In this document: positions 1 through 36,764 of the stretch, one piece after another
How the letters are laid out: each line of letters starts with the position of its first letter
How positions within the stretch are numbered: position 1 is the first letter of the stretch
IMG/VR virus record: IMGVR_UViG_3300027917_000019
Span: 1 to 64,000 of that record
Source: a virus
Length of the DNA stretch: 64,000 nt
Strand: one strand, 5' to 3'
The notes under the pieces: generated by a model
Told to the model about the DNA's origin: nothing
Databases searched by the model: none
The model's input: only the letters and a program-made list of their open reading frames with translations
Translations under genes and position numbers: made by a program

Positions 1-10
1 CAGAGGAGGA

Positions 11-34
11 GGCTGGGGTCGGTTGACCCCAGCC
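11..34 (-). terminator. GC-rich hairpin downstream of the 82-381 gene (possible terminator)
   Basis: GGCTGGGGTC-GGTT-GACCCCAGCC perfect 10-bp stem; no U-tract. The core recurs near 1710. Confidence 0.4.
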
Positions 35-81
35 CCCTACCCTGCCCGCCGGCCGGAGCCGACGGGTGGGGTGTGTAGACC

Positions 82-381
82 CTAGCAGGGGCGCAGGGCT
101 TCGAGGGTGGCCAGGATCTCCCGGGCGCCGTCCACGTCTCCCGCCTCCTCGGCGGCCATGTAGTCCACGAGGAGGCTCTGGATCTCCTTTTCGCTGGCGT
201 TCCGGGCCTTCCGGTAGTTGCGGCGGATGTTGAAGCCGCGCGACTTTCCGGCCGAATCGCCAGCCTTGCGAGCCTGCACACACTCGGGGACGGTTCCGAC
301 GCGATCGGAGGTATCGGAATCGTGGTCAGGGGTCACGGGGGCGAGAACGGCGAGGGAATCGGTCTGGTGAAGTACGGTCAT
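82..381 (-). CDS. hypothetical protein, GC-rich host-like codon usage
   Basis: ATG with AGGAG RBS on the minus strand; much higher GC than the rest of the window. Confidence 0.7.
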   Translation of the reverse strand: MTVLHQTDSLAVLAPVTPDHDSDTSDRVGTVPECVQARKAGDSAGKSRGFNIRRNYRKARNASEKEIQSLLVDYMAAEEAGDVDGAREILATLEALRPC

Positions 382-1135
382 TTTCTCTCTCCTAGTTTCG
401 TGGCGACATTGCCACGGTATTTGATGCGAAAGGTTGGGGCGATTACCTTTCGCGTCAAATACCGGGGCAACCTTGCCAGGGTTGCCTATACCGGTTCGCT
501 ACTCTCACAAAGAAGGTTGACTATTTGCTCTGTGATTTTGCTGTTTCCACTGGGAATGCTGTTAGGCTCATCTCCCGCCGTTACTTTGTCCCTTTGTTTC
601 TTTCCTTTCTTTGGGCTTCCCGTTTTAGGCGTTCAGTGGCAGGGCTTTGTCCGTTTTCACGGTACCCCTAGGATCACAGTGTGATCCCCAACACTTGTTC
701 CATGTATCACGCCTAGGAATGTTTCCCAACATTCCCCGTTGCGACTGCGCTCCCTGTATATTCCTACCTGCTTTTATGTTTGATCGTCGGTCCTACCTTC
801 CGGGGTTATCTAGTAACCCTGCCGGGGCGGTATCGATCCACGTTAGAAAAGCAGGCCAGGGATTCCCTTCCCATAACCCGCGCAGAATGCGTGATTAGAA
901 ACCGTGTTTGATTGTCAATGGAAAAACCCCGACTGCAAACCAGGATACAGGGGCGGCCCGTCCACCTGGCGACCATCGGGGAATCACTGAACAAATGGCC
1001 CCACCGTTTTTTACCACCCTGTCAAAAAACGCCAAGGGGCGCCAGGGTCGCGGGGCCGGCCGGAGCCGGGCTGGCGAGCACCCCTATTCGGGGGCCGGAG
1101 CCACCCCAAACCTCTGCAGCACCCGTGCCAGCGCC

Positions 1136-2587
1136 AAATTCCCTAATGATTTCAAGCACTTACGAGCGGCCCGTAAGTATGCGGAATCATTGAGGAATTT
1201 GGGCATGACCTAAGTATGCGGAATCATTGAGGAATTCGGGAAACTACTGCGCTTTAGTTCAGTGTCTTGTGAACAAAGGTTTACAGAAGGCGTGTGAACA
1301 AAGGTTTACGAGCCAAATTCCCTAATGATTTCAAGGGTTTGCATGACCATACATCCTAAGTATGCGGAATCATTAGGGAATTCGGCCCCATGCGAGCTCG
1401 CGGGCGACAAATTCCCTAATGATTTCAAGGGTTTAGATATATGGTCACGTAAGTATGCGGAATCATTAGGGAATTTTGACCTTACCCTCCGCGCGCCCGC
1501 ATGCGAGAGGGCCGAATTCCCTAATGATTTCAAGGGTTTAGATGTATGGTCACGTAAGTATGCGGAATCATTGGGTTTTTGGCCCTACGCGCGCGTGCGC
1601 GCTCGCCCAGCCGCAGCGAATTCCGTAATGATTTCGGGGGTTTAGATGTATGGTCACGTAAGTATGCGGAATCATTGAGCTTTTCAGCTGGGGTCTAGAG
1701 ACCCCAGGCGGGGTCGGCTGACCCCATATAACTTTGCATGAATTAAGCTAATTCATGGGGACAAGTAGCCCCAGTGAGCTAAGTATGCGGAATCATTGAG
1801 CTTTTTGGTGGAGACTTTTGTACCCACCCGTAAACCCTTGAAATCATTGAGCTTTCGGCAAACACTGCACAAATGTTCAGGAAAACCGCCGGCCCGGGGA
1901 GCTGGCGCCGAATTCCCCAATGATTTCGCATACTGAACAAAATACTGAACAAAACCCTGAACAAGTGTTCAACGCTAAGTATGCGGAATCATTACACTTT
2001 TCGGTTTCAGCGAGCTAAACCCTTGAAATCATTGAGCTTTCGGCGATTGATCCAGATCAACCGCGCCGGCCGGCGTTTTACTGAACCTTTGTTCAGGCTA
2101 ATCCGCTAAGTACTTGAAATCATTGCACTTTTTAAGGGTATACCCCGAAAACCTCAATGATTTCGAGCACTTACCGTAACACTATAATCCAGTGTCACTG
2201 TAACCCCGCCGCGCGGCCGTGACACTGAACACTTGTTCAGTAGGGTGTAAAAATACACTCTCACTGTAACCACGGCGCGCGGCCGAAACCTGGAAAGTCT
2301 GGAATGGCCCTATGTGACCCTATGTGACCCTATGTGACCATACATGCGAGTGACCATACATGCGAGTGACCATACATGGCCCTATGTGGCCCTATGTGAC
2401 AGCCTGTCACACCCTATGAAAAGTTTGCAGAGCAGCCCCGAATTCCGCAGTGATATCAAACACTTACAAGACCCTTTCCCGAATTCCTCAATGATATCAA
2501 GTACTTAGAATTCTGCACAAATACTGGATCTTTGAACATTTGTTCAGGTATATATGGCAACTTTTCTTGAATGATTCCGCATACTTA
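1136..2587. repeat. dispersed inverted/direct repeats TAAGTATGCGGAATCATT and AATGATTTCAAGNNNTTA (IHF-site-like)
   Basis: Exact TAAGTATGCGGAATCATT at 1174, 1211, 1357, 1450, 1555, 1659, 1780, 1976 and reverse at 2570; perfect WATCAANNNNTTR at 2454 and 2495. Confidence 0.9.
2305..2400. repeat. tandem ~10-bp repeats TG(A/G)CC(C/A)TA(TG/CA)
   Basis: TGACCCTATG, TGACCATACA and TGGCCCTATG in tandem. Confidence 0.85.
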
Positions 2588-3155
2588 CATGTATGGCAAT
2601 CTCTAAGGCCCGGAAATGACCCCCCCTGGTACCACCCTACCAGCGACCCCCCGAAACGCCTTAGACGGGCTGCTAGGGCCCTTTACGTGGAAAGTAGTAT
2701 TCTACCCTTGTATTCTACTAGGTGACTAATCTAACCCCTCGAAATCACTACGCTTTTCCCGAAACTGGCCAATCGGCCTAACGAATTCCACAATGATTTC
2801 CTACGCCGCGCCGCGTCAATTCCCTAACCCCGCGATATTACACACTTTTTCGACGTACCCCTCCATAACTACGCGAAATCATTACCCTTTTCCCGATACC
2901 CCTATATGGGGACTATGATCCCAATGTCAGACCATACGGACATCCGTGTCATGCGTGTCAAAAAGTACACGGACATCTATGTCATAGTAACCTACTATTC
3001 ACAGTGTAAACCCTTGTTCACGTATGATCCAAATGTCGTACCATGTATGGTCAAACCACGACATTTATGTCATACCCCCTATATGGGGTGGCTACTGGCA
3101 TAGCCTGTACAAAGGTTCAGAGTATCCATATGGGGACTACCCACCCCGTGCCCGC

Positions 3156-3335
3156 GTGACCATATGTGACCATACATGGCCCTATATGGCCATACCCGCG
3201 CGTGACCATGCGTGACGCTACGTGACCATACGTGGCCATGCCCCTATGTGACCATACATGGCCCTACGCGCGCCCCTGGGGGCTGCCCTACGTGACCCTA
3301 TGTGCCGTGACCATACATGTAGTGTATGGTCACAG
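3156..3335. repeat. second cluster of TG(A/G)CC(A/C)TA decamer repeats
   Basis: Repeated GTGACCATA, TGGCCCTA and GTGACCCTA interspersed with CGCG. Confidence 0.8.
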
Positions 3336-3490
3336 GCGGCCGGCCAGGGGCACTGAACGGGCGTGCAGTGTGGCCCCACGGCACACCCCCAAATAGGGTG
3401 TATCCAATAGGCCACACTGAACAAGCACGCAGGGGGTTTCCTTACGTAGTAGGCGCCTAACAGGTAACCATCTGAGCCTCTATACCTTTT

Positions 3491-3724
3491 TCAGAAAATT
3501 AATTCAGAATTTTCGTAGAAAAGGTTCAACTCTATATTGAAGAGGTAGTAGACCAGAATCCTGATAACACCCCTCTCATAGTTCGAAAGACACCCGTTGA
3601 GACTCACTAGCTGGTCAGCCTCTACTACTAGCTGTCTTTGAAGGTCATCTACGTTCAGGAGCAGACGACCATCGCAGCTATCTTGACCAAGCCAACCTTC
3701 ACAGTAGTATTCGTATTCAGTCAT
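3491..3724 (-). CDS. small paralog-array protein (LVVE family)
   Basis: QLVVE..NYERGV..YYLFN signature. Confidence 0.85.
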   Translation of the reverse strand: MTEYEYYCEGWLGQDSCDGRLLLNVDDLQRQLVVEADQLVSLNGCLSNYERGVIRILVYYLFNIELNLFYENSELIF

Positions 3725-3915
3725 TAGTGTCCACAGTCGACATCAAAGAGATAATCAATCAGAAATCGTAGAGCACTCCTTTCGTAGTTCTCACGATGCC
3801 GTTTATAGAATGCTACTTGAAAAGCCTCTACGACTAGCTGCTTTTCAAGAGTCTCGTACAGGTATCGCAGCTCATACCTCACGTAGCTTTCACAAAAGTA
3901 TTCGTAGTCACTCAT
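3724..3915 (-). CDS. small paralog-array protein (LVVE family)
   Basis: QLVVE..NYERS..DYLFD. Confidence 0.85.
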   Translation of the reverse strand: MSDYEYFCESYVRYELRYLYETLEKQLVVEAFQVAFYKRHRENYERSALRFLIDYLFDVDCGH

Positions 3916-4107
3916 TTAGATTCCGCAATCTATATCGAAGAGGTAGCGGATCAGAATCCGGATGACGTTTCTTTCAAAGTATCTGTGATACCTTTTAAGC
4001 GTGATCAGCTGCGAAGGCTCTATTACTAGTTTGTTTTGTAGGACTGGTATTAGGCGCTGAAGTGTGTAATCTGACCAAACTGCACAAAGGCGTTCATATT
4101 CAGTCAT
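3916..4107 (-). CDS. small paralog-array protein (LVVE family)
   Basis: KLVIE..YFERNV..RYLFD. Confidence 0.85.
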   Translation of the reverse strand: MTEYERLCAVWSDYTLQRLIPVLQNKLVIEPSQLITLKRYHRYFERNVIRILIRYLFDIDCGI

Positions 4108-4321
4108 GGTTCACTTCGACGGGGACGGGATAGTACTTTGGGAGTGTGGTATCGAAGAGATATTGAACTATGAGCCAGACGACGTTTCTCTCGTAACACT
4201 CAAGACCAAACTGAAAACGCATTAGCTGATCTTTCTCTATGACTAGTTGATTCTCGTTTTCAACTAATTCGTACTCTACCCAGTGTGCGCAGTAGAACTC
4301 GTAGTCAGTTTCCCATTTCAT
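4100..4321 (-). CDS. small paralog-array protein (LVVE family)
   Basis: QLVIE..CYERNV..QYLFD. Confidence 0.85.
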   Translation of the reverse strand: MKWETDYEFYCAHWVEYELVENENQLVIEKDQLMRFQFGLECYERNVVWLIVQYLFDTTLPKYYPVPVEVNHD

Positions 4322-4342
4322 AGGACTCCTAAACGGGGTGGT

Positions 4343-4573
4343 TCATCCTCGATACTCATACCAGTCGCGTGCGCCCGTAGCTGATACTTTCACGTCCCAG
4401 AAGAATAGAACTAGGATATATATGACGTGAATCTCCCAGGACCTGATATCAGCGTAAAGCCTTCTTCGTTCTAGACCTTCTTCTAGGACTAGATTGTCCT
4501 TGAGAGCTTCTAGGTCTTGTTCTATCCAGTTTTCGTAGTAGGACTTATATTCGTAGTACTTATATTTAGACAT
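4343..4573 (-). CDS. small paralog-array protein (LVVE family)
   Basis: NLVLE..SWEIHV..FFWD. Confidence 0.85.
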   Translation of the reverse strand: MSKYKYYEYKSYYENWIEQDLEALKDNLVLEEGLERRRLYADIRSWEIHVIYILVLFFWDVKVSATGARDWYEYRG

Positions 4574-4584
4574 AGATTACGACA

Positions 4585-4797
4585 TCAGCGTTGGCTTAAG
4601 TAGTCTGGGACGTTGAAAGCGCCGTATGCGTTGACGTCCCAGAGGTACATAACTAAGAGCCATATAACACCTCTCTCAAAGTTCCCGACGTTACTTACAA
4701 GCCATGCTACTTGATTAGCCTCTACAACTAGTTGGCCTTCAATGGCATTAAGAGGGTGGTTTACCCAACCTTCGCAGTGGTACTCGTATTCAGTCAT
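4585..4797 (-). CDS. small paralog-array protein (LVVE family)
   Basis: QLVVE..NFERGV..YLWD. Confidence 0.85.
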   Translation of the reverse strand: MTEYEYHCEGWVNHPLNAIEGQLVVEANQVAWLVSNVGNFERGVIWLLVMYLWDVNAYGAFNVPDYLSQR

Positions 4798-5008
4798 TCT
4801 GATGATATTTCCAGTATTCGTCCAAAGTAACGTCTATATTTGCATTAAAGAGGTAGTAGATTAGAACGAGGAGTACGTGGAGTTCAAAGTTGTTAATATC
4901 ACTCGTAAGGAGTGCCCATTGACCAGGCTCTATTACTAGCTGTTTTTCAACGACTCTTACGTCGTCTCGTATCCAGCGTTGGTAATAAGGTTTGTATGTT
5001 AACGTCAT
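4790..5008 (-). CDS. small paralog-array protein (LVVE family)
   Basis: QLVIE..NFELHV..YYLFN. Confidence 0.85.
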   Translation of the reverse strand: MTLTYKPYYQRWIRDDVRVVEKQLVIEPGQWALLTSDINNFELHVLLVLIYYLFNANIDVTLDEYWKYHQND

Positions 5009-5232
5009 GGTATGTTGTTCAAGAACTGGTCTTCAGTGTAGTCTGAAATGTATTCAGCAACTGTAATATCGAAGAGGTAAGAAAACAGACAGTAGAGGAC
5101 TTGGCGTTCAAAACACCTAATATCATGCCGGAGATCCGCTAGGTCGTCGTGCTCTATTACTAGACCACATTTGATTATATCTAAGTGGTTTTCTATCCAG
5201 CGTTGATGGTAAGATTTGTATGTTAGTGACAC
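5005..5232 (-). CDS. small paralog-array protein (LVVE family)
   Basis: GLVIE..CFERQV..SYLFD. Confidence 0.85.
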   Translation of the reverse strand: MSLTYKSYHQRWIENHLDIIKCGLVIEHDDLADLRHDIRCFERQVLYCLFSYLFDITVAEYISDYTEDQFLNNIP

Positions 5233-5233
5233 A

Positions 5234-5428
5234 CTACTTCCAAAGATCTAGGTCTATATCAAAGAGAAACCGAACAACTGTAAATAGGGAATGTTTTTCA
5301 AAGTGTTTCTTATAGGATTTGATTACGGCCAACTCCACGGCTTCTACTACTAATTCATCGGCAGCACTCCATACATACCTTTGTAAGAAGGCGAGGTAGT
5401 CTTTGTTGTAGCTGTAACGAATTATCAT
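5234..5428 (-). CDS. small paralog-array protein (LVVE family)
   Basis: ELVVE..HFEKHS..RFLFD. Confidence 0.85.
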   Translation of the reverse strand: MIIRYSYNKDYLAFLQRYVWSAADELVVEAVELAVIKSYKKHFEKHSLFTVVRFLFDIDLDLWK

Positions 5429-5443
5429 ACAGTATCTCCAGAC

Positions 5444-5635
5444 TTATATAGCCGTATCGAAGAGATACCAAACAAGACAAAACAAGGTATATGCTTCATA
5501 GTTTTTCTTGTAGTACTTAATTGTAGTCAACAAGTCTGTTTCTATCACCAAACTGTTAGAAGCTAAAGCTGTTTCTACAAGCTCCTGTAATTGGTCCTGA
5601 TAATAAGAGCTGTACCTAATCGCGTTATCGTACAT
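5444..5635 (-). CDS. small paralog-array protein (LVVE family)
   Basis: SLVIE..NYEAYT..WYLFD. Confidence 0.85.
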   Translation of the reverse strand: MYDNAIRYSSYYQDQLQELVETALASNSLVIETDLLTTIKYYKKNYEAYTLFCLVWYLFDTAI

Positions 5636-5677
5636 GTCTAAGGCGCCTAAAGGATTGGAATTTAATCGGCATGAGTA

Positions 5678-5863
5678 CTATTCTCGTAGAAAACACAAAA
5701 AGTTGACGAAAAGTCGCACGATAGCTTCGTTACGAAGAGATAGTTCTTGTTTGATCCGAGACAATGCTTCTTCCTCTATGACTAGGCGCCCCTGGATCTC
5801 CCTTACGGAGCTTTTAAGCCACCACTCGTAATAGTTGTAAGAAAAACTACGTAGACCAGCCAT
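5678..5863 (-). CDS. small paralog-array protein (LVVE family)
   Basis: WWL..RLVIE..hydrophobic C-terminal helix. Confidence 0.8.
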   Translation of the reverse strand: MAGLRSFSYNYYEWWLKSSVREIQGRLVIEEEALSRIKQELSLRNEAIVRLFVNFLCFLRE

Positions 5864-5868
5864 ATCTT

Positions 5869-6093
5869 TCAGATTCGAATTCGAATTCGATTATCAAACA
5901 AAAACAATACGAGGACTTGTATAACGTGCTGACTAAGCCAACGTTGATATGTTTCGAGGTTGTCCAATTGCTGTTCTTCTACTACCAATCCAGGAGATAC
6001 TATTTCAATCTCCATTTTTAACCACCTCTGGTAAACAGGGTCATACTGAAGGGGGAGTATTGAGGACCGCATGCGCTCCAACATGTTGTTCAT
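5869..6093 (-). CDS. small paralog-array protein (LVVE family)
   Basis: YQRWL..GLVVE..LFLFD. Confidence 0.85.
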   Translation of the reverse strand: MNNMLERMRSSILPLQYDPVYQRWLKMEIEIVSPGLVVEEQQLDNLETYQRWLSQHVIQVLVLFLFDNRIRIRI

Positions 6094-6290
6094 TCGAACC
6101 CCGCAGGAAAGTATATGTGTTCACCAAAACAGAAGGAGAATACAACCCCAACTACGTGAATTTCATACCAATCTTTGCAGCTGTAGATACTATCTAATTG
6201 CTGTTCTTCTATTACCAACTGCGTAGAAGCTTGGTCGAGGTGCGCTGCTAGTACTCTTTTGTAGACACGCATGTTGGAAAGATAGTCCAT
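6090..6290 (-). CDS. small paralog-array protein (LVVE family)
   Basis: QLVIE..WYEIHV..FCFG; start moved to MDYLSN. Confidence 0.8.
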   Translation of the reverse strand: MDYLSNMRVYKRVLAAHLDQASTQLVIEEQQLDSIYSCKDWYEIHVVGVVFSFCFGEHIYFPAGFE

Positions 6291-6291
6291 A

Positions 6292-6510
6292 TTACCAGTC
6301 TGCTCCATAAGGCAGTTCACAACCAAAGAGAATGGCAACTACTTTCTTGATGTAAGCTTTTTCCAAATCACAACGCAACCCTACCAACATCCTTACCGTC
6401 GCATCTTCTACAACCAGCTGATATGAACATTCTTCAATGATGCTCTCAATACTCCTTTCAAGAATATTGTTATACCAACGTATTTGGTCAATGTCTACCG
6501 TGCCCATCAT
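6292..6510 (-). CDS. small paralog-array protein (LVVE family)
   Basis: QLVVE..DLEKAY..ILFG. Confidence 0.8.
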   Translation of the reverse strand: MMGTVDIDQIRWYNNILERSIESIIEECSYQLVVEDATVRMLVGLRCDLEKAYIKKVVAILFGCELPYGADW

Positions 6511-6755
6511 AGCCACCAAGGATGGCCAGTAAAGTCTATGTTAGTATCGTTGAATAGGTATCGGAACAACATCATTACCAAAAGCCCATTTACATGCATA
6601 AGTGCCGATTGTATGTCAACAAGGTCTTTTTCTTCTACTGCTAGATAATCTTCTACCCTCTGCATTAGAAGGTTAAGATTCTCGACCTCTGTCTCCATTC
6701 GATACTGAATGATGCATACATCTATGTAAAAAGTAGCGTTGTTGTAGTCACTCAT
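6507..6755 (-). CDS. small paralog-array protein (LVVE family)
   Basis: YLAVE..RYLFND. Confidence 0.8.
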   Translation of the reverse strand: MSDYNNATFYIDVCIIQYRMETEVENLNLLMQRVEDYLAVEEKDLVDIQSALMHVNGLLVMMLFRYLFNDTNIDFTGHPWWL

Positions 6756-6764
6756 ACTTCTCAA

Positions 6765-6944
6765 CTAAGGGCAAGTATCAAAGAGGTAGTAAATCAGAAC
6801 GCGAATGATATGTTTTTCAAAATTCTCTTTCTCTCTTTCAATAATCCTCAAAAGCCTCTTTTCTACTACCAGTGAGTCTTTGACTGCCTGCACGTCCTGA
6901 TTTAGCCAGTACTGATAGTGTGGGGAATATACCTCGTATTTCAT
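6765..6944 (-). CDS. small paralog-array protein (LVVE family), absent from the ORF track (59 aa)
   Basis: Hand translation MKYEVYSPHYQYWLNQDVQAVKDSLVVEKRLLRIIEREKENFEKHIIRVLIYYLFDTCP. Confidence 0.85.
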   Translation of the reverse strand: MKYEVYSPHYQYWLNQDVQAVKDSLVVEKRLLRIIEREKENFEKHIIRVLIYYLFDTCP

Positions 6945-7153
6945 GAGTTTTCATCCAAGGTGCACAGGAAGTCTGCAACGCTCTGCACCCACCACTCCAT
7001 AGCGTGCTTGTGGAGGTTTCTGAGGCGTCTAACATCGGGTTGCTCTAGGACCAGCTGCTGACCGTTTAGGAGGCGGTGCGTGGCTTTTAGGGCCCTTGTT
7101 TCGTGAACTAGAGCCCACCGCACTGCAGTGCTGGCTGGGTCATAATCAGTCAT
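6941..7153 (-). CDS. small paralog-array protein (LVVE family)
   Basis: QLVLE..AMEWWV..DFL. Confidence 0.8.
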   Translation of the reverse strand: MTDYDPASTAVRWALVHETRALKATHRLLNGQQLVLEQPDVRRLRNLHKHAMEWWVQSVADFLCTLDENS

Positions 7154-7340
7154 TTAGTATTTTCTCAAGAAATTCAACAAAGATATATACCCACTCAGTA
7201 GCAATTGTTTCTCTACAATCCTCTATAAATTTCACTTGGCCCTGTTCCACGACAAGCACTGCTTTGAGTAGCACATGCCAGGTCTCTATTATCACTTGAT
7301 AACTGTGTATGATTTGTTTTCGTCGTGAGGAATAGTACAT
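7146..7340 (-). CDS. small paralog-array protein (LVVE family)
   Basis: VLVVE..EWV..EFL. Confidence 0.8.
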   Translation of the reverse strand: MYYSSRRKQIIHSYQVIIETWHVLLKAVLVVEQGQVKFIEDCRETIATEWVYIFVEFLEKILND

Positions 7341-7573
7341 TACTCTTCTCTAAGGTACTCAAGAACTCCTTGAAAAAGCGCAACCCATCCACGATTTATT
7401 AGTTCTTTATTAAACCGTAGGTCATTTATGTCAAGATGCTCAAGCGTCAATCGCCTACCGTTTTTTAACCTAGAAATATACTGAACGAGTTGGTCTTCTC
7501 TATCCGTCACCCAGTCAACGTTTCCAAACACAGGATGACCTCGATATACACCAATCTGTCGAAGTGTGCCCAC
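7340..7573 (-). CDS. small paralog-array protein (LVVE family, divergent)
   Basis: RLTLE..GWV..EYL. Confidence 0.75.
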   Translation of the reverse strand: MGTLRQIGVYRGHPVFGNVDWVTDREDQLVQYISRLKNGRRLTLEHLDINDLRFNKELINRGWVALFQGVLEYLREE

Positions 7574-7646
7574 AGCAATACCATAAGGCCGAATTGGGTA
7601 AGTGCAATCCCAATTCGGCCCTTACATATACCCTCATAGGTATAGG

Positions 7647-7892
7647 CTACAGAAACAACCACTTAAGTAGATAGTACACTACTTGTTGTTCACCGAGTTT
7701 CGCATGTTCTGTACAAACACCTAGTGTTTCTAAATCAACATGCTCTGCAACCAGCTTATCATCGTAAGCTTCTACTCGCTCTTTAAGCGTAAGCTTCCTA
7801 GCACGCCAGGTAGTAATCCAGTATGACAACGAGTCGTCGAGCAGCGCATGGAGAATGGTTTGGCCATGCTTAGTGACGATAACCTTACTCAT
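7647..7892 (-). CDS. small paralog-array protein (LVVE family)
   Basis: KLVAE..LGEQQV..KWLF. Confidence 0.8.
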   Translation of the reverse strand: MSKVIVTKHGQTILHALLDDSLSYWITTWRARKLTLKERVEAYDDKLVAEHVDLETLGVCTEHAKLGEQQVVYYLLKWLFL

Positions 7893-8097
7893 CTAAGCTC
7901 CACTCTAATATTTCCTGCAGCGCATATATCCACCGCTGATTAATGCACTCTTTTCCGTTCTCAAGCACCAAAAGATCATAGCCTTCTGTAACAAGCTGAT
8001 TTTCTACACGCACTACATTATCATGTAAATCTTGTGTGTAGTTAAGGGCCCATCGGGTCCAATAGCTTATCCATGCTAATCTAGGTTCCCTTTTCAC
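7885..8097 (-). CDS. small paralog-array protein (LVVE family)
   Basis: QLVTE..RWI..EWSL. Confidence 0.8.
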   Translation of the reverse strand: MKREPRLAWISYWTRWALNYTQDLHDNVVRVENQLVTEGYDLLVLENGKECINQRWIYALQEILEWSLDE

Positions 8098-8179
8098 GAA
8101 AACTAACCATAGCTAAGCCAAGTCCCCAGAACAACTAGAGAAACAAACAAAACAGCATTCAGGTAGTATTCTACTGGAT

Positions 8180-8401
8180 TCATAGCTTGGTAGAAAGCCT
8201 GCGATTGATATTCAGTGCAACAATACCCTCCAACACTGCAACAGTCGCAGACTCATATTCCTCATGAACCTGATAGTTCGTCTTGTCATCGATAGCTACA
8301 AGACCAATCTTCCCGTTTTCCTTCTCGATGATGTGTAGTGTGAAACTAGAAAGTGTTTGGTCTTCGCGCTTCTCTTCAGACTTTGTCATAGTAGATTCCA
8401 T
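8180..8401 (-). CDS. hypothetical protein
   Basis: ORF co-oriented with and overlapping its upstream neighbour. Confidence 0.7.
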   Translation of the reverse strand: MESTMTKSEEKREDQTLSSFTLHIIEKENGKIGLVAIDDKTNYQVHEEYESATVAVLEGIVALNINRRLSTKL

Positions 8402-8595
8402 TCTCCGGCCTCCTCGTCGATGTATGGTCTAGTGTCCTTTGGAGGGACTTGAACCCATTTATATCCAAGCGCCGTTTTTTCAGTCTTGTGGTACGTAATA
8501 TTGAAAGTACTGGTGTTATAGTGATCAGGATTTCCCCAAGCTGCCGCGCTGTAATCAACACCGCCAATATAAAGGTCACTCACAACAAGCTCCAC
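8386..8595 (-). CDS. hypothetical protein with C-terminal EEAGEWNLL tail
   Basis: ORF; C-terminal motif shared with four other proteins. Confidence 0.75.
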   Translation of the reverse strand: MELVVSDLYIGGVDYSAAAWGNPDHYNTSTFNITYHKTEKTALGYKWVQVPPKDTRPYIDEEAGEWNLL

Positions 8596-8921
8596 TCTCC
8601 CTCTTCACTAGGGTCGTACAATTCAAGCTCTGTCAGGTCTACAAACGTAATAACCCCACGAGCTTCTACATTTACCCCAAAGTAGTTGCTGTCCACAGTA
8701 TATCCAGATCCATGGTCAGATACAGACGCTGTGTGCTTCTTAGCAACCAAGCGCTCTTCAGATTTCGTCCCATCCGGCCAGCGAACTTTTACTATCTGCC
8801 CCGCAATCAAGGTGATACCACGAGAACGAGACGCAGTACCTGCAGTTGATAGGCCCTCGCCGCTATAGGCGTAATAGATGTAGCCCCAATCATCGAACCT
8901 TTCAATCTTCCTATAACTCAC
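8580..8921 (-). CDS. hypothetical protein with C-terminal EEGEWSLL tail
   Basis: ORF; shared C-terminal motif. Confidence 0.8.
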   Translation of the reverse strand: MSYRKIERFDDWGYIYYAYSGEGLSTAGTASRSRGITLIAGQIVKVRWPDGTKSEERLVAKKHTASVSDHGSGYTVDSNYFGVNVEARGVITFVDLTELELYDPSEEGEWSLL

Positions 8922-8924
8922 ATG

Positions 8925-9182
8925 TCACCCACAGCCGGCGCCTGTCTGGCGAGGCTCCTCTTTCTCCTCGGACGGGTGGTCTACCGTAGCGCGTAATTCG
9001 TTGACAGCAGCAGTCAGGTCTTCAATCAGTACCTGTAAAATGACAAGGTCAGCCTTAACGTTGTTCAATTCGGCTCGCATGCACGTCAAGTCTAGTTGTG
9101 TAAAGTCCATCGCCCGCATCGTAAGCACCTTCCTGCACGTCGTCAAGAGGTTATGAAAGGGATCGTTTTGAAAACGAAGCAT
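8925..9182 (-). CDS. hypothetical coiled-coil protein
   Basis: Heptad Leu pattern; first gene of the leftward block. Confidence 0.65.
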   Translation of the reverse strand: MLRFQNDPFHNLLTTCRKVLTMRAMDFTQLDLTCMRAELNNVKADLVILQVLIEDLTAAVNELRATVDHPSEEKEEPRQTGAGCG

Positions 9183-9489
9183 TCAAGGTGTAAACTAACA
9201 TCAGAATAGACCCTTAAATAAGTACTTGTCTGTGAATAGATCACCATTTCTAGCTTGTTTTCACAAAACGAGGTGTTAGAATGGTGCTGAAGACTGCTCA
9301 GAATGGCCCTATTTGGTGTTGACAGGGGTTATGGTAGTGCTTATTTGGTACCTAACTAGGTATTACGAGTACGTGGAGAGATCCGGGCTGGTCTGACGGC
9401 CTGAAATTATGCCCCGTGGGTATACCTATCTTGTATGCGGGCCGTTGTCCGGACCAAAATAGGGACAGACTTTAAAAGAGGGACAGTAC

Positions 9490-9855
9490 ATGAGTGAGGA
9501 CCAAGACATTTGTCGAATAGTTCTACATCTGATTGAACCTGATGAAACGTTAGAGTTCGCGGTGGTTAGATCTGAAGTAGTACACTTTCTATCTGTGGTT
9601 AACAACCTGAACACAGTGTTCGTAAACATAAATGGAACAGGTATTCCAATCCGCCGCATCGCCTCCTATAATGAAGAAGACATGAACGGTGAGAGTGTTT
9701 ACAATAAGGCATTTATCTACACATCCCTGCCTATTCAAACAGTCGTACTTCCCCCAGCAACAGGATCCCCCCCATCGTTACCAAACGTCACAACAAGCGA
9801 GGACTGGTATCTGCACGCAGGTGACATAGGTCCCCTAAAGAAGGAAGGCTTCTGA
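9490..9855 (+). CDS. hypothetical protein
   Basis: ATG with GAGGGA RBS; distantly similar to the next ORF (LEFAVV..IASYNEEDMNG vs AEFEAV..VAVYSAEDMDG). Confidence 0.75.
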   Translation: MSEDQDICRIVLHLIEPDETLEFAVVRSEVVHFLSVVNNLNTVFVNINGTGIPIRRIASYNEEDMNGESVYNKAFIYTSLPIQTVVLPPATGSPPSLPNVTTSEDWYLHAGDIGPLKKEGF

Positions 9856-10157
9856 TGGCTATTCGAGCAACGACACATTCACCCCGTAGGACTAATAAGC
9901 CTACCTCTAAGGATGTCGATGTAGTAAAGATGATCGTAACTCTACACTCTGGTGCTGAGTTTGAGGCTGTCGGCGGCCGTGACGACGCTATTGATTTTCA
10001 CAGGCGTTTCAAAAAGTGGGTAGACGGTCAAGTTCACAAAACAGATAACCACAAGATTGTATTCTTTGGTGGTATTTACTTTGCCGCGAATGCTGTCGCT
10101 GTATATTCTGCTGAAGATATGGATGGGAAGAAGGTAGACCTTGGCCCCGCACATTGA
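9855..10157 (+). CDS. hypothetical protein
   Basis: TGATG coupling with the upstream gene. Confidence 0.75.
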   Translation: MAIRATTHSPRRTNKPTSKDVDVVKMIVTLHSGAEFEAVGGRDDAIDFHRRFKKWVDGQVHKTDNHKIVFFGGIYFAANAVAVYSAEDMDGKKVDLGPAH

Positions 10158-10548
10158 TGTGCCTGAAGGTAAAGACGTAATAGACGTTTTCCACAAGTGG
10201 CACGCAAAGCTTGACAGTGAAAACAGAGAGATAATCTTCTCTGTATCTACACAATATTATTTGGAAGAAGGACAGGCTGATCTTCTTGACCCAGAAGATG
10301 AGACGAAGTGGACCAAGGTTTTGGTACTACCTTTTCCTAAGGATAATGTTGTAACCGAGAAAGGTGAGATGTTAGTCGGCGCGTCTGTTCCTACTTTCTT
10401 TGACACAGAACAGCTCAAAAAACGGTTCATCCCTATAGACGACTTTGTACAAGTCGTCTATAAGATGGTTGAACAGATAAACGCCGATTTAGAAAACGCA
10501 ATGCTATTGCAGCAAATGGAAGATAACGCTGAGTGGAGTCTTCTGTAG
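10141..10548 (+). CDS. hypothetical protein with C-terminal EDNAEWSLL tail
   Basis: TTG start with GAAGG RBS; shared C-terminal motif. Confidence 0.75.
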   Translation: MAPHIDVPEGKDVIDVFHKWHAKLDSENREIIFSVSTQYYLEEGQADLLDPEDETKWTKVLVLPFPKDNVVTEKGEMLVGASVPTFFDTEQLKKRFIPIDDFVQVVYKMVEQINADLENAMLLQQMEDNAEWSLL

Positions 10549-10595: not shown

Positions 10596-11030
10596 ATGAT
10601 AATAGTCAATGATTTCATATTTATCAAAGTGTTTCCAGACTTATTCTGGGCACAGTGTGGAGATGGTTGGTTACTGCTTGGGGCTGAGTCATTAGCACAA
10701 GACCCCCACATCCTAGCAGCGGTGACGTATGATTCTGAAGTTAAAACAGGAAGGTTTGTACATCTGGTAAAGGCAGACATGCGTCTGAAGGCTGACAAGA
10801 TTTCTGGCGATGACGTGTACTATTCAACAGGTCAAACAAGCCCTCGTGCTCTTATGACAACATATCCAGACTTTGTGTACATAGTACAAGCCGATAACAG
10901 TGATGATCTAAAAGGGCACATTCTAGAACTACTATTCAGGAGTGATGTTCCTACTCCTAGTGTACCTTCTGAAAAAGTAGACCGTCGCCCAAGTTTTGAA
11001 GATCTTGAGGGAGATTGGTCCCTTCTGTGA
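10596..11030 (+). CDS. hypothetical protein with C-terminal EDLEGDWSLL tail
   Basis: ORF; shared C-terminal motif. Confidence 0.75.
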   Translation: MIIVNDFIFIKVFPDLFWAQCGDGWLLLGAESLAQDPHILAAVTYDSEVKTGRFVHLVKADMRLKADKISGDDVYYSTGQTSPRALMTTYPDFVYIVQADNSDDLKGHILELLFRSDVPTPSVPSEKVDRRPSFEDLEGDWSLL

Positions 11031-11556
11031 TCTTTCTTCACTTTCTTTCCTCACACCCATTGACAACCCTTGGTATTACCCCCAATTTAGATCAGACGGT
11101 TTAAGGGTAAGGCTTAATTCTCAGACTAAAGAGTTAGTAGTTATGTACGGTGAAGATATAGATGCTATTGACGTAGTAGACTGTGTATTCGAGTACTATG
11201 ATAAATACGGTAAGCGTATTACATTTGACGACCTAATAGAACTAGAAGACGACCAGAAATACGGTATAGTCGGTGTGTGGGTAAACTGGGTAGGAGAAGA
11301 AGTTATTACTACCACTTGGAATGGTGTACCTGTCTATCCTATAGAGGAGAAGGAAGGTCCTGACCCTCTCATCTTTGAGACTGTCTGTCATCGGGAAGAT
11401 CGGTACCGAAATATCATTCGTAGGTACTCTACACTGGATAGGGCTATAGAGGGGCATCGAACCGCTGTTTTGCAAGCAGGTGGTGATCCTGATTCAAATT
11501 ACGACAACATGCCTGACTGGATGCCTCCGTACTTCCTAGACTCGGATTTTTACTGA
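10996..11556 (+). CDS. hypothetical protein, WVxWxGE..EGH..GGDP family copy 1 (start uncertain)
   Basis: Motifs shared with the next two ORFs. Confidence 0.7.
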   Translation: MKILREIGPFCDLSSLSFLTPIDNPWYYPQFRSDGLRVRLNSQTKELVVMYGEDIDAIDVVDCVFEYYDKYGKRITFDDLIELEDDQKYGIVGVWVNWVGEEVITTTWNGVPVYPIEEKEGPDPLIFETVCHREDRYRNIIRRYSTLDRAIEGHRTAVLQAGGDPDSNYDNMPDWMPPYFLDSDFY

Positions 11557-11557
11557 G

Positions 11558-11833
11558 ATGACTAACACATATGTTGCTCCCTCAGGGTATATACTTGTAA
11601 AAGCTTGGGTAGACTGGCTTGGAGAGACTGTGGTTGAAACTTCAAGGGCACGTGAAAAAGGAAGGTATATTACGTTTGTGTCTACAAAGAACGGGCCGAT
11701 AGGCCCTGTTGCTTTCTATGACACGCTTGAAGACGCCGAAAAGGGGCATGACCTTGAAGTTAAATCTCATGGTGGTGACCCCGAAGGTTTTTACCCTCGT
11801 CCAGATTGGTATATCAAACGAGTGTGTGGGTGA
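11558..11833 (+). CDS. hypothetical protein, WVDWLGE family copy 2
   Basis: WVDWLGETVVET..GGDPEGFYPRPDWYIK. Confidence 0.8.
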   Translation: MTNTYVAPSGYILVKAWVDWLGETVVETSRAREKGRYITFVSTKNGPIGPVAFYDTLEDAEKGHDLEVKSHGGDPEGFYPRPDWYIKRVCG

Positions 11834-12191
11834 ACTAGTGCCTTATTTTGATATCAACACTCTAGATATTCATAAGGACTATCTGTCTCCTACAGGTTAC
11901 CAAGTTATAAACGTTTGGGTAGACTGGCTTGGAGAGACTGTAATTGAGACTGTCTTTGATAGTGCTTCGAATGCCAGGATTGAGTACACTTCTGAGTATA
12001 CTCCTACCTTGTTTTACACGTATGTGGCTACACATAAGGGGGCTATAACTTCTCTTAATGATTACTTGACTGTGCAGGAAGCTAAGGACGGGCATGTTGC
12101 TTTAGTTAGGGCTCATGGAGGCAATCCTGAAGGTTTTTACCCTCGTCCAGATTGGTACATCAAAAGTGTCGCTAACATCGTTCGTTTTTAA
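11826..12191 (+). CDS. hypothetical protein, WVDWLGE family copy 3
   Basis: WVDWLGETVIET..GGNPEGFYPRPDWYIK; start placed at GTG. Confidence 0.75.
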   Translation: MGELVPYFDINTLDIHKDYLSPTGYQVINVWVDWLGETVIETVFDSASNARIEYTSEYTPTLFYTYVATHKGAITSLNDYLTVQEAKDGHVALVRAHGGNPEGFYPRPDWYIKSVANIVRF

Positions 12192-12985: not shown

Positions 12986-13657
12986 GTGTCCAGATGGTTG
13001 AATTTCTTAGGATTTCTGGTATTGGCCCTGTTTATCGAGGCATGCATACCAACATCCTTGAAACTAGATAGTGGTCCCATGCTGGTCCCTATAACGCAAG
13101 CAGGTTACCACTGGACTCCTGACCGCTTCCCTATTCCAGTATATGTACATCCGCAGATGGACCCTATCCGCAAGTTGGCTGTATTACTAGCCATAGACCA
13201 GTGGAACGAGTCTGTAGGTGGTGACGTGTTTGAGTACATAGACGCTCCTCCCAACTGGCCCATGTTTGAAGAGAACGGAGCGTTTACAGCATTGGGATTT
13301 GTTAGTGTGGAGGAAGGGCTTGTTGGTGTTGACCCAGATATGAACGTACAGCGTAATGCGTGGGCAGCTGTTTCTCTCAGACCTGGAAGGTACGAACTTC
13401 TAGGTGAGATTCATGGGGCTAGGGTTATGATTGGTACACACGTATCCGGTCTAGAAGACGCCGCTCGGATCACATTCCATGAGCTTGGGCACTGTTTAGG
13501 CTTGGCACATGATGGAAATGATCGTACAAGCATCATGTACTATAGCGCCACTCTTTCTATGAGTCAGCATCTACAGGAAGAGGATTTGGCCTATGTTAGA
13601 CAACAAGTGGGGACTTGGACTGCTGTCGAGGTCTTCCGTGAGTCACTCCAACTCTGA
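12986..13657 (+). CDS. matrixin (M10-like) zinc metalloprotease, putative lipoprotein
   Basis: HELGHCLGLAH zinc motif plus Met-turn SIMY; N-terminal hydrophobic segment ending IEAC. Confidence 0.9.
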   Translation: MSRWLNFLGFLVLALFIEACIPTSLKLDSGPMLVPITQAGYHWTPDRFPIPVYVHPQMDPIRKLAVLLAIDQWNESVGGDVFEYIDAPPNWPMFEENGAFTALGFVSVEEGLVGVDPDMNVQRNAWAAVSLRPGRYELLGEIHGARVMIGTHVSGLEDAARITFHELGHCLGLAHDGNDRTSIMYYSATLSMSQHLQEEDLAYVRQQVGTWTAVEVFRESLQL

Positions 13658-13853
13658 GTTATGGCATTTGCTGTTTGATCTTCAAATTCTCGTAAACGGG
13701 CATTGTGACGTTACAACTACTCCAGAATACGATGATGCAGTAGAAGCTTTTGATCCAGAACATGATGAAAGATACAGAGCGGCCATGTTGAAGGCTCGGG
13801 AGGCTTGTCCAGCAACGATTGACGATGAGGAGGGAGATTGGAGCCTCCTCTGA
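13638..13853 (+). CDS. hypothetical acidic protein with C-terminal DEEGDWSLL tail
   Basis: ORF; shared C-terminal motif; start placed at GTG. Confidence 0.7.
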   Translation: MSHSNSELWHLLFDLQILVNGHCDVTTTPEYDDAVEAFDPEHDERYRAAMLKAREACPATIDDEEGDWSLL

Positions 13854-27262: not shown

Positions 27263-27335
27263 GCTGTCGAAGCTAAACAGGCGAAGCACCTGGTTCTTAC
27301 CCAGGCAATAGGGGGTTCGAGTCCCTCCGGCAGTA
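27263..27335 (+). tRNA. tRNA-Lys(CTT)
   Basis: Cloverleaf, CCTGG-TTCTTAC-CCAGG. Confidence 0.85.
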
Positions 27336-27336
27336 C

Positions 27337-27412
27337 TCGGGATTAGCTCAGCGGTAGAGCGACGGTCTCTGACACCGTGTCAGCGGGGGTTCGAATCCCT
27401 CATCCCGGACCA
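27337..27412 (+). tRNA. tRNA-Gln(CTG)
   Basis: ACGGT-CTCTGAC-ACCGT; CCA. Confidence 0.9.
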
Positions 27413-27413
27413 T

Positions 27414-27489
27414 TGTAGGGTAGGCTAACTGGGAAGCCGCCTGACTGTTACTCAGGAAGATGCAGGTTCGAAGCCTGCCCCTACAGCCA
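27414..27489 (+). tRNA. tRNA-Asn(GTT)
   Basis: CCTGA-CTGTTAC-TCAGG; CCA. Confidence 0.9.
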
Positions 27490-27492
27490 CCC

Positions 27493-27521
27493 TTGACAGG
27501 GTTTGTGATCGTGACTATGTT
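27493..27521 (+). promoter_or_regulatory. sigma70-type promoter
   Basis: TTGACA-17-TATGTT. Confidence 0.65.
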
Positions 27522-34278: not shown

Positions 34279-34458
34279 ATGGCACGTACACATCACCACA
34301 ATCGTGGTTGGGCTAAACGTCGAATGAACAAGGATCACAAAGAAGATCGTCGTTTGTGTCAAAGACGTTTTCGTAGTATACAGAGAGGGATGATACATCA
34401 CGAACGTTGGGATGATATTCCAAGGTTCCGTAGAGACAGTGGGTGGTTGACATGGTAG
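34279..34458 (+). CDS. small Arg/His-rich protein (59 aa, not in the ORF track)
   Basis: MARTHHHNRGWAKRR...FRRDSGWLTW. Confidence 0.6.
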   Translation: MARTHHHNRGWAKRRMNKDHKEDRRLCQRRFRSIQRGMIHHERWDDIPRFRRDSGWLTW

Positions 34459-34578
34459 AAAGCATTTTGACCAGCGTCACGACTACGCAGTGAATCACAA
34501 GACCGGTAAGCAGATTTGCTACAAAGCCTATTGCAAGGGGCACGTTTCGGACTTATGGTGATGCGGAAGGAGACACGT

Positions 34579-34833
34579 ATGGACTTTGAGAAGGAAATTA
34601 CAAAGGCTCAGAAGACTGCAGCCCAAAAGGCTATGAAGGAAGCGGCTGCTCGAACACTCAACGATCTTGCAACGGATCTTGGTAAGAAAGTTGCTGCTAC
34701 ATGGTTTAAGACTCACCGCAAAGAACTGGAGCAAGAACTAGCAGAAGCTCTAGAAGAGCTTTGGCCGGGGATTCTTGAAAAGACTGCACAACGTTGGGCG
34801 AAGGAAGCTGAACTAACGGTGGATGGTTGGTGA
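34579..34833 (+). CDS. hypothetical helical protein
   Basis: AAGGAG RBS before MDFEKE. Confidence 0.7.
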   Translation: MDFEKEITKAQKTAAQKAMKEAAARTLNDLATDLGKKVAATWFKTHRKELEQELAEALEELWPGILEKTAQRWAKEAELTVDGW

Positions 34834-35063
34834 TGAAAATTGTAGCAACAAACGAACAGCTGTATCTGGTGGATATCTATGATCTCGGGGATATCGGTGA
34901 AGAAACACCAGATCAGCAGCGCTTCAACAGGGATATCACGGTCCCTAGTAACCTTTTGTTCATGGAGTATGCTGAGTACCTGCAGACTCTCTATTCACAG
35001 GCAGCTGGGGAACGAGAGTTTCAAGAAAGGCGTGATTCCATGAAGGTTGTGGTGTCTGGATGA
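34833..35063 (+). CDS. hypothetical protein
   Basis: TGATG coupling. Confidence 0.7.
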   Translation: MKIVATNEQLYLVDIYDLGDIGEETPDQQRFNRDITVPSNLLFMEYAEYLQTLYSQAAGEREFQERRDSMKVVVSG

Positions 35064-35769: not shown

Positions 35770-35986
35770 TGAACACCAAGGATGTTAAAAAACACGGGGA
35801 TCCGTTGCCATGTTGTAATGGTTACATCTACTATGACGGCCGCTGTGGTGATGGTCCGATACCAATCCACGAAAAAACGTGTCCTGTCGGCAAGCGCGAG
35901 GAGGCTGAGTGGGCATATTGGAGTCGCGAGCGCAGATAGGATTAACACTTGACAACACCGTAAAAGGTGTTACACTGAGGCTCTTC

Positions 35987-36063: not shown

Positions 36064-36072
36064 AGGGGTATC

Positions 36073-36678: not shown

Positions 36679-36683
36679 AATTT

Positions 36684-36763: not shown

Positions 36764-36764
36764 A

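Follow-up and report, generated by a model that had tools for sequence, protein, structure and literature searches.

A tandem array of 21 small, highly diverged paralogs in the genome of an uncultured phage

In SPO1-like phages, host takeover is carried out by small early genes clustered in the terminal region (PMC6873191, PMC7414437); SPO1 early proteins act by binding host targets, namely RNA polymerase (Gp44), HU (Gp46), and ClpC (Gp53) (PMC8208478, PMC8892312, PMC6873191), and the takeover genes have strong ribosome-binding sites (PMC6873191). Tandem copies of small viral genes are also known from gene accordions, as summarized for poxvirus K3L (Elde et al., 2012, via PMC13359090) and as described in phage for T4 tifA and for anti-defense amplifications in T6 (PMC9391042, PMC13096335). 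Here we describe a locus that recalls both situations in the record of an uncultured phage (IMGVR_UViG_3300027917_000019; 165.8 kb, "linear, no end repeats"), of which positions 1 to 64,000 were analysed as the window and supply the coordinates below.

Layout of the array and its surroundings

Positions 3491-8097 hold 21 intact, co-oriented genes of 59-82 aa on the minus strand. The initial annotation had listed 21 consecutive ORFs here, and all were borne out at their coordinates, including the 59-aa ORF at 6765-6944 that it had added to the program-made list and that proved to be among the best members of the family (66 bits in a leave-one-out search). Gene-caller starts shorten four members (6090-6290, 6292-6507, 6507-6755, and 7340-7531). 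The features are as follows, with leave-one-out bit scores.

1100..3460, no strand: gene-free repeat region, directly downstream of the array
3491..3724, minus strand: m01, 77 aa, subfamily A, YLF(D/N) end; 61 bits
3724..3915, minus strand: m02, 63 aa, subfamily A; 44 bits
3916..4107, minus strand: m03, 63 aa, subfamily A; 52 bits
4100..4321, minus strand: m04, 73 aa, subfamily A; 57 bits
4343..4573, minus strand: m05, 76 aa, subfamily A; 43 bits
4585..4797, minus strand: m06, 70 aa, subfamily A; 55 bits
4790..5008, minus strand: m07, 72 aa, subfamily A; 60 bits
5005..5232, minus strand: m08, 75 aa, subfamily A, GTG start; 67 bits
5234..5428, minus strand: m09, 64 aa, subfamily A; 44 bits
5444..5635, minus strand: m10, 63 aa, subfamily A; 39 bits
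5678..5863, minus strand: m11, 61 aa; 36 bits
5869..6093, minus strand: m12, 74 aa, subfamily A; 55 bits
6090..6290, minus strand: m13, 66 aa from ATG (82 aa from upstream TTG at 6338); 38 bits
6292..6507, minus strand: m14, 71 aa from ATG (75 aa from TTG at 6519); 16 bits, among the weakest
6507..6755, minus strand: m15, 82 aa from ATG (85 aa from TTG at 6764); 24 bits
6765..6944, minus strand: m16, 59 aa, minimal core member, used for fold prediction; 66 bits
6941..7153, minus strand: m17, 70 aa, subfamily B; 18 bits
7146..7340, minus strand: m18, 64 aa, "..FLEKIL" end; 31 bits
7340..7531, minus strand: m19, 63 aa from GTG at 7531 (77 aa from GTG at 7573); weakest member, 13 bits versus its own shuffle maximum of 9.7
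7587..7620, minus strand: stem-loop, 14 bp, between m20 and m19 in the array's one large intergenic gap
7647..7892, minus strand: m20, 81 aa, divergent member; 20 bits
7885..8097, minus strand: m21, 70 aa, subfamily B; 29 bits
8180..9182, minus strand: four unrelated small ORFan genes (85, 113, 69, and 73 aa), upstream of the array
9183..9489, no strand: intergenic region from which the leftward arm (with the array) and the rightward main arm diverge

The genes are mostly abutting or overlapping, as had been proposed: 13 of the 20 junctions are overlaps or gaps of at most 1 nt, which suggests an operon-like coupled row with m21 as its first family gene. The TAA stop of m03 lies directly against the ATG of m02 and in frame with it, the TAG stop of m11 is in frame with m10 with no intervening stop, and the TAG stop of m16 is in frame with m15. 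The stem-loop (-25.1 kcal/mol, z -4.4, 0/200 shuffles) could be an attenuator, a terminator, or a processing site. Shine-Dalgarno-like motifs precede 5 of the 24 copies in the genome, a rate equal to random (19%), versus 54% for long genes. Lying first in the minus-strand arm and adjoining the divergent region, the array opens the leftward gene arm. We infer that 9183..9489 is a promoter region; sigma-70-like sites were found at chance level (17 versus 16.6 expected) with a consensus that may not be that of the host.

The array adjoins a repeat-rich non-coding region, as stated in the initial annotation. This region contains 104-bp units, a AAGTATGCGGAATCATT motif in both orientations, which is common to the relative L033, and 10-bp phased GTGACCATAC-type repeats. 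All neighbors of the array are ORFans, and ten of them lack a Pfam domain. An acidic C-terminal W(S/N)LL tail is present in two of the four upstream ORFans, several ORFans flanking the array on both sides share a C-terminal tag, and tags in L033 are similar (EWDLF, EWDII, EWDLV, and EWDVL). The closest relative covering the region (RNR 71%, portal 66%) has the repeat motif, the flanking phosphatase-like gene, and RNR in common with this phage, and the genes in between are entirely different, with no LVxE copies among them. Given that the same flanks enclose different genes, this is a hyperplastic accessory region. The portal, the core gene compared for lineage, is 44% identical to those of Bacillus and Lysinibacillus SPO1-like phages, consistent with a distantly SPO1-like placement of this virulent phage. 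The structural module lies at 42-64 kb. Outside the window, three more diverged copies in tandem (142309-142989 of the record) bring the total to 24; their neighbors encode an AAA ATPase, an HD_4 protein, and a HerA-like ATPase.

Family conservation, age, and predicted fold

The 21 genes belong to one real protein family, as the initial annotation had supposed: every member was recovered by an HMM built from the remaining 20, with scores of 12.9-66.6 bits versus a shuffle maximum of 12.2 (200 self-shuffles each), the weakest being 7340-7573 (12.9), 6292-6519 (15.9), and 6941-7153 (18.2). BLASTP alone joins 12 members at 1e-4, and by the same method the family is by far the largest paralog group of the genome, no other group exceeding three. 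The proposed skeleton of Y..Y..W, LVxE, (F/Y)E..V, and YLFD describes the 16 downstream copies; in the five upstream ones (6941-8097) the end is "(I/F)LE(W/Y)L" instead. The L-V-x-E motif has an invariant Glu, for which 13 copies use GAA and 11 use GAG, its Leu is encoded by five different codons, and identity by codon position is 0.37/0.49/0.32; judging from these codons, conservation acts at the protein level. Neighboring copies are more alike in a weak sense, with 27.2% identity at lag 1 versus 24.6% over all pairs (permutation p = 0.01).

The family tree is poorly resolved. We observed that m18 belongs to the upstream group by motif and in alignment A5, and that the tree places it with the other group on a very long branch.

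An origin by tandem duplication is supported, and the copies lie head to tail. The suggestion that the array had been amplified accordion-like, in a recent or ongoing process, did not hold: pairwise identity ranges from 11 to 45%, no pair exceeding the upper value, identity at third positions is close to random (0.32), and the median length of terminal tree branches is 1.64 substitutions per site. DNA repeats between copies are at most 46 nt long with 61-76% identity, and in a second assembly of the same phage the array is identical and its copy number unchanged. All 24 copies are intact in spite of near-saturated synonymous sites and long terminal branches, which indicates that each copy has been kept by selection. 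By these sequence measures, the array is a very old, long-kept product of tandem duplication and not a recent accordion.

No known family had been recognized from the letters, and searches of Pfam, PHROGs, PADLOC, and PDB sequences agreed. In PHROGs, the best single-member E-value was 0.014 and no family was matched by more than one member; Pfam and PADLOC gave no family common to the members and no match to an immunity or antitoxin family. When 1.84 billion representative proteins were searched exhaustively with a profile, this phage's own proteins were the only hits, and two members queried by tblastn against 50,697 phage genomes gave no match. The family appears to be new and private to one phage lineage. 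Twenty-four genes without a relative among about 15 billion predicted proteins show the extent of truly private phage gene content.

In the AF2 model (pLDDT 87), m16 folds as a simple antiparallel hairpin whose two helices, at 9-22 and 29-55, are joined by the LVVE turn at 23-28. The conserved positions correspond to a/d-type hydrophobic sites of both helices and to LVxE at the turn, positions between them have entropies above 3 bits, and the lengths of the termini differ among members. The hydrophobic scaffold is thus conserved and the surface positions hypervariable. Net charge is negative in 20 of the 24 members, aromatic content is 14% versus a 7.8% background, and no membrane segment was found in the members. 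Fold searches returned generic hairpins alone, in a flat list with a best Z of 7.2. A model of the m03-m02 read-through fusion reached a pTM of 0.47, its alignment-less half having a pLDDT of 55-64.

Candidate functions

We tentatively propose that the array encodes small cytoplasmic proteins, expressed together as a panel, that bind host or defense proteins, a putative role that we regard as quite possible and by no means assured. The genes would be co-transcribed at the start of the leftward arm, which is probably early or accessory, and translated largely by stop-start coupling. In the host cytoplasm, the shared hydrophobic scaffold would perhaps dimerize into a four-helix bundle, and 24 differing surfaces and tails may be offered to different host proteins or defense components. 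In favor of such a panel are the intact copies, constrained core, variable surface, acidic and aromatic-rich soluble proteins, and ORFan accessory setting, together with the operon-like packing, the place at the head of the leftward arm, the likeness of the portal to SPO1-like phages, and the size of the paralog family. Against it stand a generic two-helix hairpin, searches that found no target, partner, or homologue of known function, promoter-like and Shine-Dalgarno-like motifs at chance frequency, and the lack of confident pairing in the fusion model; absence from relatives could equally mean that the array is dispensable. A more elaborate version, which we consider unlikely, is that the 24 hairpins are a germline-encoded repertoire in which a shared scaffold and docking element (the invariant LVxE turn and hydrophobic face) engages a common host hub or other members, and each surface neutralizes a different host immune protein or allele. 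Mixed bundles might multiply specificity, and two-domain forms could arise in addition if the phage's own suppressor tRNA reads through amber stops.

Other explanations were weighed against the binder panel. Co-translated hairpins might be homo- or hetero-oligomerizing blocks that join via their hydrophobic face into mixed bundles or a larger intracellular or virion-internal structure, with paralog diversity tuning assembly. The hydrophobic face of the C-terminal helix (m16 residues 46, 47, 50, 51, and 53-55) exceeds what a monomeric hairpin needs, stop-start coupling favors near-equimolar synthesis, and three copies, two ending in amber and one in ochre, share the frame of the copy that follows, which would allow tandem two-domain products. 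However, the fusion model showed no confident packing, with one half alignment-less, the array is far from the structural module, and structural proteins are usually conserved among relatives, yet the array is missing in the closest one; we find this reading doubtful. It is improbable that the hairpins are adaptors or regulators of the phage's own proteins, chaperone-like or anti-factor partners each paired with one protein such as the neighbors with W(S/N)LL tails. The array is indeed embedded among ORFans with shared tags on both sides, and similar tags occur in L033, but no numerical or positional pairing was seen, and because the relative keeps tagged proteins without LVxE copies, tags and family are not coupled.

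An immunity or antitoxin-type array, in which each paralog would neutralize a different toxin of host abortive-infection systems or competing elements as in polyimmunity loci, draws on the layout of tandem, small, diverged genes with a conserved core, which resembles published immunity-gene arrays (PMC3482391), and on the acidity of the proteins. We judge it hardly probable, given that neither cluster has a toxin domain or cassette beside it and that no Pfam immunity family or PADLOC model was matched. It is very improbable that the ORFs are functionless or selfish filler persisting in a recombination-prone region. Their absence from relatives, the lack of homologues in any search, and the missing ribosome-binding sites of most copies would fit, but all 24 copies have kept their frames open and share an invariant Glu and a conserved heptad core despite saturated synonymous sites, which argues against it, as does the packaging constraint under which phage genomes stand.

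If the binder panel is real, it would represent a naturally diversified and compact library built on a 60-residue scaffold, which could help to find new defense systems and their inhibitors, and a clear example of phages keeping duplicated genes very long in addition to expanding and collapsing them. For the time being, the uncultured state of the phage restricts practical use.

Comparison with described systems

In structural class, there is a likeness to ROP-like helical-hairpin dimers of about 60 residues, whose two antiparallel helices form four-helix bundles. The predicted fold similarly pairs antiparallel helices (9-22 and 29-55 in m16) and has a heptad-like hydrophobic core, and no sequence or specific structural match to those dimers was found. 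Polyimmunity loci of polymorphic toxin systems (PMC3482391) likewise consist of small, diverged paralogs that stand in tandem and keep a conserved core. The present array differs from them in having no adjacent toxin and no known immunity family, and in lying in a phage rather than a bacterial genome.

Gene accordions share with this locus the head-to-tail tandem copies of a small viral gene, read as a response in an arms race. Their copies are recent and near-identical, and their copy number is unstable, whereas here identity is 11-45%, silent sites are saturated, no recombinogenic DNA identity is left, and two assemblies have the same copy number.

SPO1 gp37-gp60 and Herelleviridae homologues have no sequence similarity to the present family by profile search or by tblastn of two members. 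The genes here are likewise small (59-82 aa), but neither strong promoters nor strong ribosome-binding sites were detected for them. The cited accounts do not describe the genes of the SPO1 module as copies of one family, whereas here 21 genes form a single one. The two loci are alike in being dense clusters of about two dozen small genes, mostly ORFans, close to an end of the genome or to a repeat region, in an SPO1-type myovirus or, in the present case, a probable distant relative of one.

Array layout and family membership

The 21 successive, co-oriented small ORFs that the initial annotation had placed at 3491-8097 are present on the minus strand, with lengths of 59-85 aa counted from the first start codon, or 59-82 aa when the ATG/GTG starts of public gene callers are used (members are numbered m01-m21 by rising coordinate, m21 being first in the direction of transcription). 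The ORF at 6765-6944, said to have been missed by the ORF track, is there as well; it is simply 59 aa long and ranks among the most typical members. At 13 of the 20 junctions the genes overlap by 1, 4 or 8 nt or are separated by 0-1 nt, and the sole large gap within the array, of 115 nt, separates the second and third gene and contains a stem-loop. This stem-loop has no clear U-tract, and the word CCGAATT in its stem recurs in the non-coding repeat region. An Rfam search of positions 1-10000 gave no match.

Stem-loop and additional family members
7587-7620, minus strand: stem-loop with a perfect 14 bp stem, -25.1 kcal/mol, z -4.4, inside the 115-nt array gap
142309-142989 of the full record G000 (4310-4990 of L024, the sequence piece covering it), minus strand: distal trio of family copies, E-values 5.5e-7, 0.004 and 0.007, lengths 81, 71 and 85 aa

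Reading the block as one large repeat protein in an alternative genetic code was ruled out, because the stop codons of the 21 genes are mixed (TGA in 10, TAA in 6, TAG in 5) and the genes occupy different frames, with -1, -4 and -8 overlaps. Two of the five TAG-ended genes share the frame of the following member without an intervening stop (6507-6944 and 5444-5863, both minus strand), and amber suppression by the phage tRNA(CUA), encoded at 32246-32318, would yield fused two-domain products of 145 and 139 aa. Members m03 and m02 are contiguous in one frame across a TAA.

The claim that these ORFs form a single paralog family held up in a leave-one-out test, in which the profile of the other 20 recovered each of the 21 members above 200 shuffles of its own sequence (scores of 12.9-66.6 bits, with shuffles reaching at most 12.2), the weakest being those at 7340-7573, 6292-6519 and 6941-7153. 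L-V-x-E stands out in the 21-way alignment, with the Glu invariant. BLASTP alone connects 12 array members at 1e-4, and the next largest paralog group of the genome has three members by the same method. A scan covering each of the 1,904 stop-to-stop frames in the IMG/VR record (165,819 bp, rated 98% complete, with the window as its first 64 kb) retrieved the 21 members and three adjacent minus-strand frames, followed by noise. This distal trio aligns with the family across the whole core, shares an '(I/L)LEWL' ending with five upstream array members, and groups with m17, m19 and m21 in the tree (support 85/82). Since the trio matches, aligns and clusters with upstream members, the family comprises 24 members in two subfamilies: A, the downstream copies ending in YLF(D/N), and B, the upstream-type copies such as m17 and m21.

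Conservation, distribution and predicted fold

The invariant Glu is encoded by GAA in 13 copies and by GAG in 11, five different codons are used at the conserved Leu and four at the conserved Val, and mean pairwise identity at codon positions 1/2/3 is 0.37/0.49/0.32. Because codon choice varies at invariant residues and identity is distributed in this way over the codon positions, conservation lies at the protein level and not in a DNA motif; a conserved DNA element was ruled out both by the synonymous variation and by the second position outscoring the first and third. Open frames are intact in all 24 copies while silent sites are near random, which is our main argument that each copy is probably maintained individually; the low pairwise identity (11-45%) and the long terminal tree branches (median 1.64 substitutions per site) point the same way.

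The array had been described as accordion-amplified, and a recent event of this kind is argued against by the strong divergence of the copies at intact frames. An independent assembly of the phage (Logan, SRR6207735) is also identical through the array, differing only within the 104-bp repeats at 1435-1637, and in one ENA fragment a family member shows a single change, H9N. At the DNA level, no repeat shared between copies exceeds 46 nt, and the repeats of this length are 61-76% identical. The statement that neighbours are most alike survives as a slight excess only (27.2% identity for adjacent against 24.6% for random pairs, p = 0.01); in the tree, m09 pairs with m10 and m12 with m13. Both observations fit an origin by local duplication.

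An exhaustive HMMER search with the 21-member profile, run over 1.84 billion representative sequences that stand for about 15 billion proteins, returned 20 matches at E <=0.001, all 20 being the phage's own proteins, and a subfamily-B profile against a 5.8-billion-cluster index likewise recovered own proteins only. There was no match in tblastn searches of 50,697 phage genomes with two typical members, or in IMG/VR scans with one family member and two neighbours as queries, and no family member was present among 7,689 frames from about 45 loci of relatives, sampled through portal, ribonucleotide reductase (RNR) and phosphatase-like scans. Scores of the weakest paralogs fall to 13-20 bits in the leave-one-out test, so equally diverged orthologues would escape these searches, whereas consensus-like copies would not.

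AlphaFold2 modeled the 59-aa member, using the 24-sequence alignment, with a pLDDT of 87 and a pTM of 0.65, predicting a helix at 9-22, an extended turn at 23-28 containing LVVE, and a long helix at 29-55. Conserved columns comprise hydrophobic positions 10, 13/14, 18 and 21 in helix 1, then LVV in the turn and hydrophobic positions 32, 35, 42, 46/47, 50/51 and 53-55 in helix 2; columns between them have an entropy >3 bits, and the N- and C-termini vary in length. The model puts the invariant Glu in the N-terminal cap position of helix 2, and it is more strictly conserved than a helix cap would need. Foldseek comparisons of the predicted fold with PDB and BFVD gave generic helical hairpins at E >1, a wide VIA fold search gave a flat list of generic hairpins at Z <=7.2, and ESM Atlas gave no usable match. 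The initial annotation recognized no known family, and we agree: Pfam, PHROGs, PADLOC and PDB sequence profiles yielded no consistent match, and the folds are generic. The protein family is new, without a relative in the searches and without a specific match to its predicted fold.

Net charge is negative in 20 of the 24 members, and aromatic residues make up 14% of the family against 7.8% in the genome's long ORFs. Nucleic-acid binding is unlikely because the proteins are acidic. Membrane, holin or type-I-toxin-like peptides were ruled out, as the members have no uncharged run of >=18 residues; the highest 19-residue Kyte-Doolittle mean, 1.64, is reached in one member only, and a plausible membrane segment is lacking in every member.

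Genomic setting and relatives

Between 9.4 and 138.5 kb almost every gene is on the plus strand. The minus-strand arm spans the record ends, with one stretch going down from 165.8 kb to 140 kb and another from 9.2 kb to 1. The array is the first large block of this leftward arm, because it comes directly after the four small ORFan genes that lead away from the divergent region. It is directly followed by 2.4 kb of gene-free repeats, in agreement with the earlier placement beside a repeat-rich non-coding region.

Features around the array
1100-3460: gene-free repeat region with 104-bp units, the AAGTATGCGGAATCATT motif in forward and reverse orientation, and GTGACCATAC-type repeats phased at 10 bp
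8180-9182, minus strand: four unrelated small ORFan genes between the divergent region and the array
9183-9489: divergent region between the arms, followed leftward by the four small ORFan genes
8386-8595, minus strand: protein with acidic C-terminal tail
8580-8921, minus strand: protein with acidic C-terminal tail
10141-10548, plus strand: protein with acidic C-terminal tail
10596-11030, plus strand: protein with acidic C-terminal tail
13593-13853, plus strand: protein with acidic C-terminal tail

The closest relative reaching the array region, IMGVR_UViG_3300033121_000603 (L033), is 71% identical in RNR, 66% in portal and 43% in a phosphatase-like gene. Between its repeats and the phosphatase-like gene it carries a wholly different set of genes on the plus strand, none of them a family member. 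The AAGTATGCGGAATCATT motif also occurs in this relative (898-927), so the repeat region is conserved and its neighboring genes are not; an origin, a packaging site and the boundary of a terminal repeat are possible roles for the region. Because the closest relative has other genes and about 45 loci lack the family, the array fills a hyperplastic, lineage-specific accessory region. No Pfam domain was found in any array neighbor up to 12.2 kb. On one side of the distal trio lie a small Cys-rich ORF and an HD_4-domain gene; its other side has a coiled-coil ORF and an AAA ATPase, and a HerA-like ATPase is close by.

The portal shows 44% identity to its counterparts in SPO1-like phages of Bacillus and Lysinibacillus, and the window also encodes an RNR and an exonuclease. 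A 13-kb stretch (27263-40595) holds 38 tRNA genes, one of them an amber suppressor, together with a tmRNA (tag ADNAALPLAA); for a phage of 166 kb this set of translation genes is unusually complete. The RNR of L033 (8879-11803) has 974 aa against 662 aa in the window phage, and carries an insert of ~310 residues that by eye looks intein-like, with a homing-endonuclease region. In another relative's locus, L053, the phosphatase-like gene is 64% identical to that of the window phage, and two ORFs at 1130-2790, between this gene and RNR, are by eye what we take to be IS200/IS605-type tnpA and tnpB. The more distant relative L055 seems to have a different set of paralogs of its own, small to mid-size and in a row, at the corresponding upstream position (329-3408, plus strand), whose N-termini seem to share a pattern like E(I/L)S.PDG.

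An acidic ...E(G)(E/D)W(S/N)LL tail terminates five small proteins around the array that are otherwise unrelated, and four consecutive small proteins of L033 (6366-7859, plus strand) end in EWDLF, EWDII, EWDLV and EWDVL. Because similar endings occur in both phages, this C-terminal tag is conserved between them although the proteins are not alignable. A C-terminal segment ...GH...V..HGG(D/N)PEGFYPRPDWYIK is common to the plus-strand ORFs 10996-11556, 11558-11833 and 11709-12191, a second, small local paralog group of which BLASTP connects the two larger ones.

Proposed function and comparison with known systems

We tentatively hypothesize, as our preferred reading, that the array may encode a co-expressed set of small soluble binders, likened to SPO1's host-takeover module; the copies here would act as binders on one scaffold. 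Their translation would rely on stop-start coupling, since a Shine-Dalgarno-like motif precedes only 5 of the 24 copies, which is the random rate, compared with 54% in long genes. No promoter signal above chance was found with a sigma-70-like consensus, which may not be that of the host. This null result and the scarcity of Shine-Dalgarno-like motifs count against the binder reading. Its main rival, that the hairpins assemble with each other, we regard as unlikely. The naturally in-frame copies m03 and m02, folded as a single chain as if the TAA between them were read through, gave a pTM of 0.47 as a probe of such pairing. That the proteins serve as adaptors for the phage's own proteins is more doubtful still, as is, to the same degree, an immunity-type array, and we give least credence to the array being junk.

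As to the set of small soluble binders, the SPO1 module consists of small early genes clustered in the terminal region, and its characterized products bind host proteins (PMC6873191, PMC8208478, PMC8892312, PMC7414437). In contrast, the array here consists of 21 copies of one family, which the cited passages do not describe for the SPO1 genes. Gene amplification is a documented counter-defence route in T4 and T6 (PMC9391042, PMC13096335); unlike such gene accordions, the array described here is ancient and stable.
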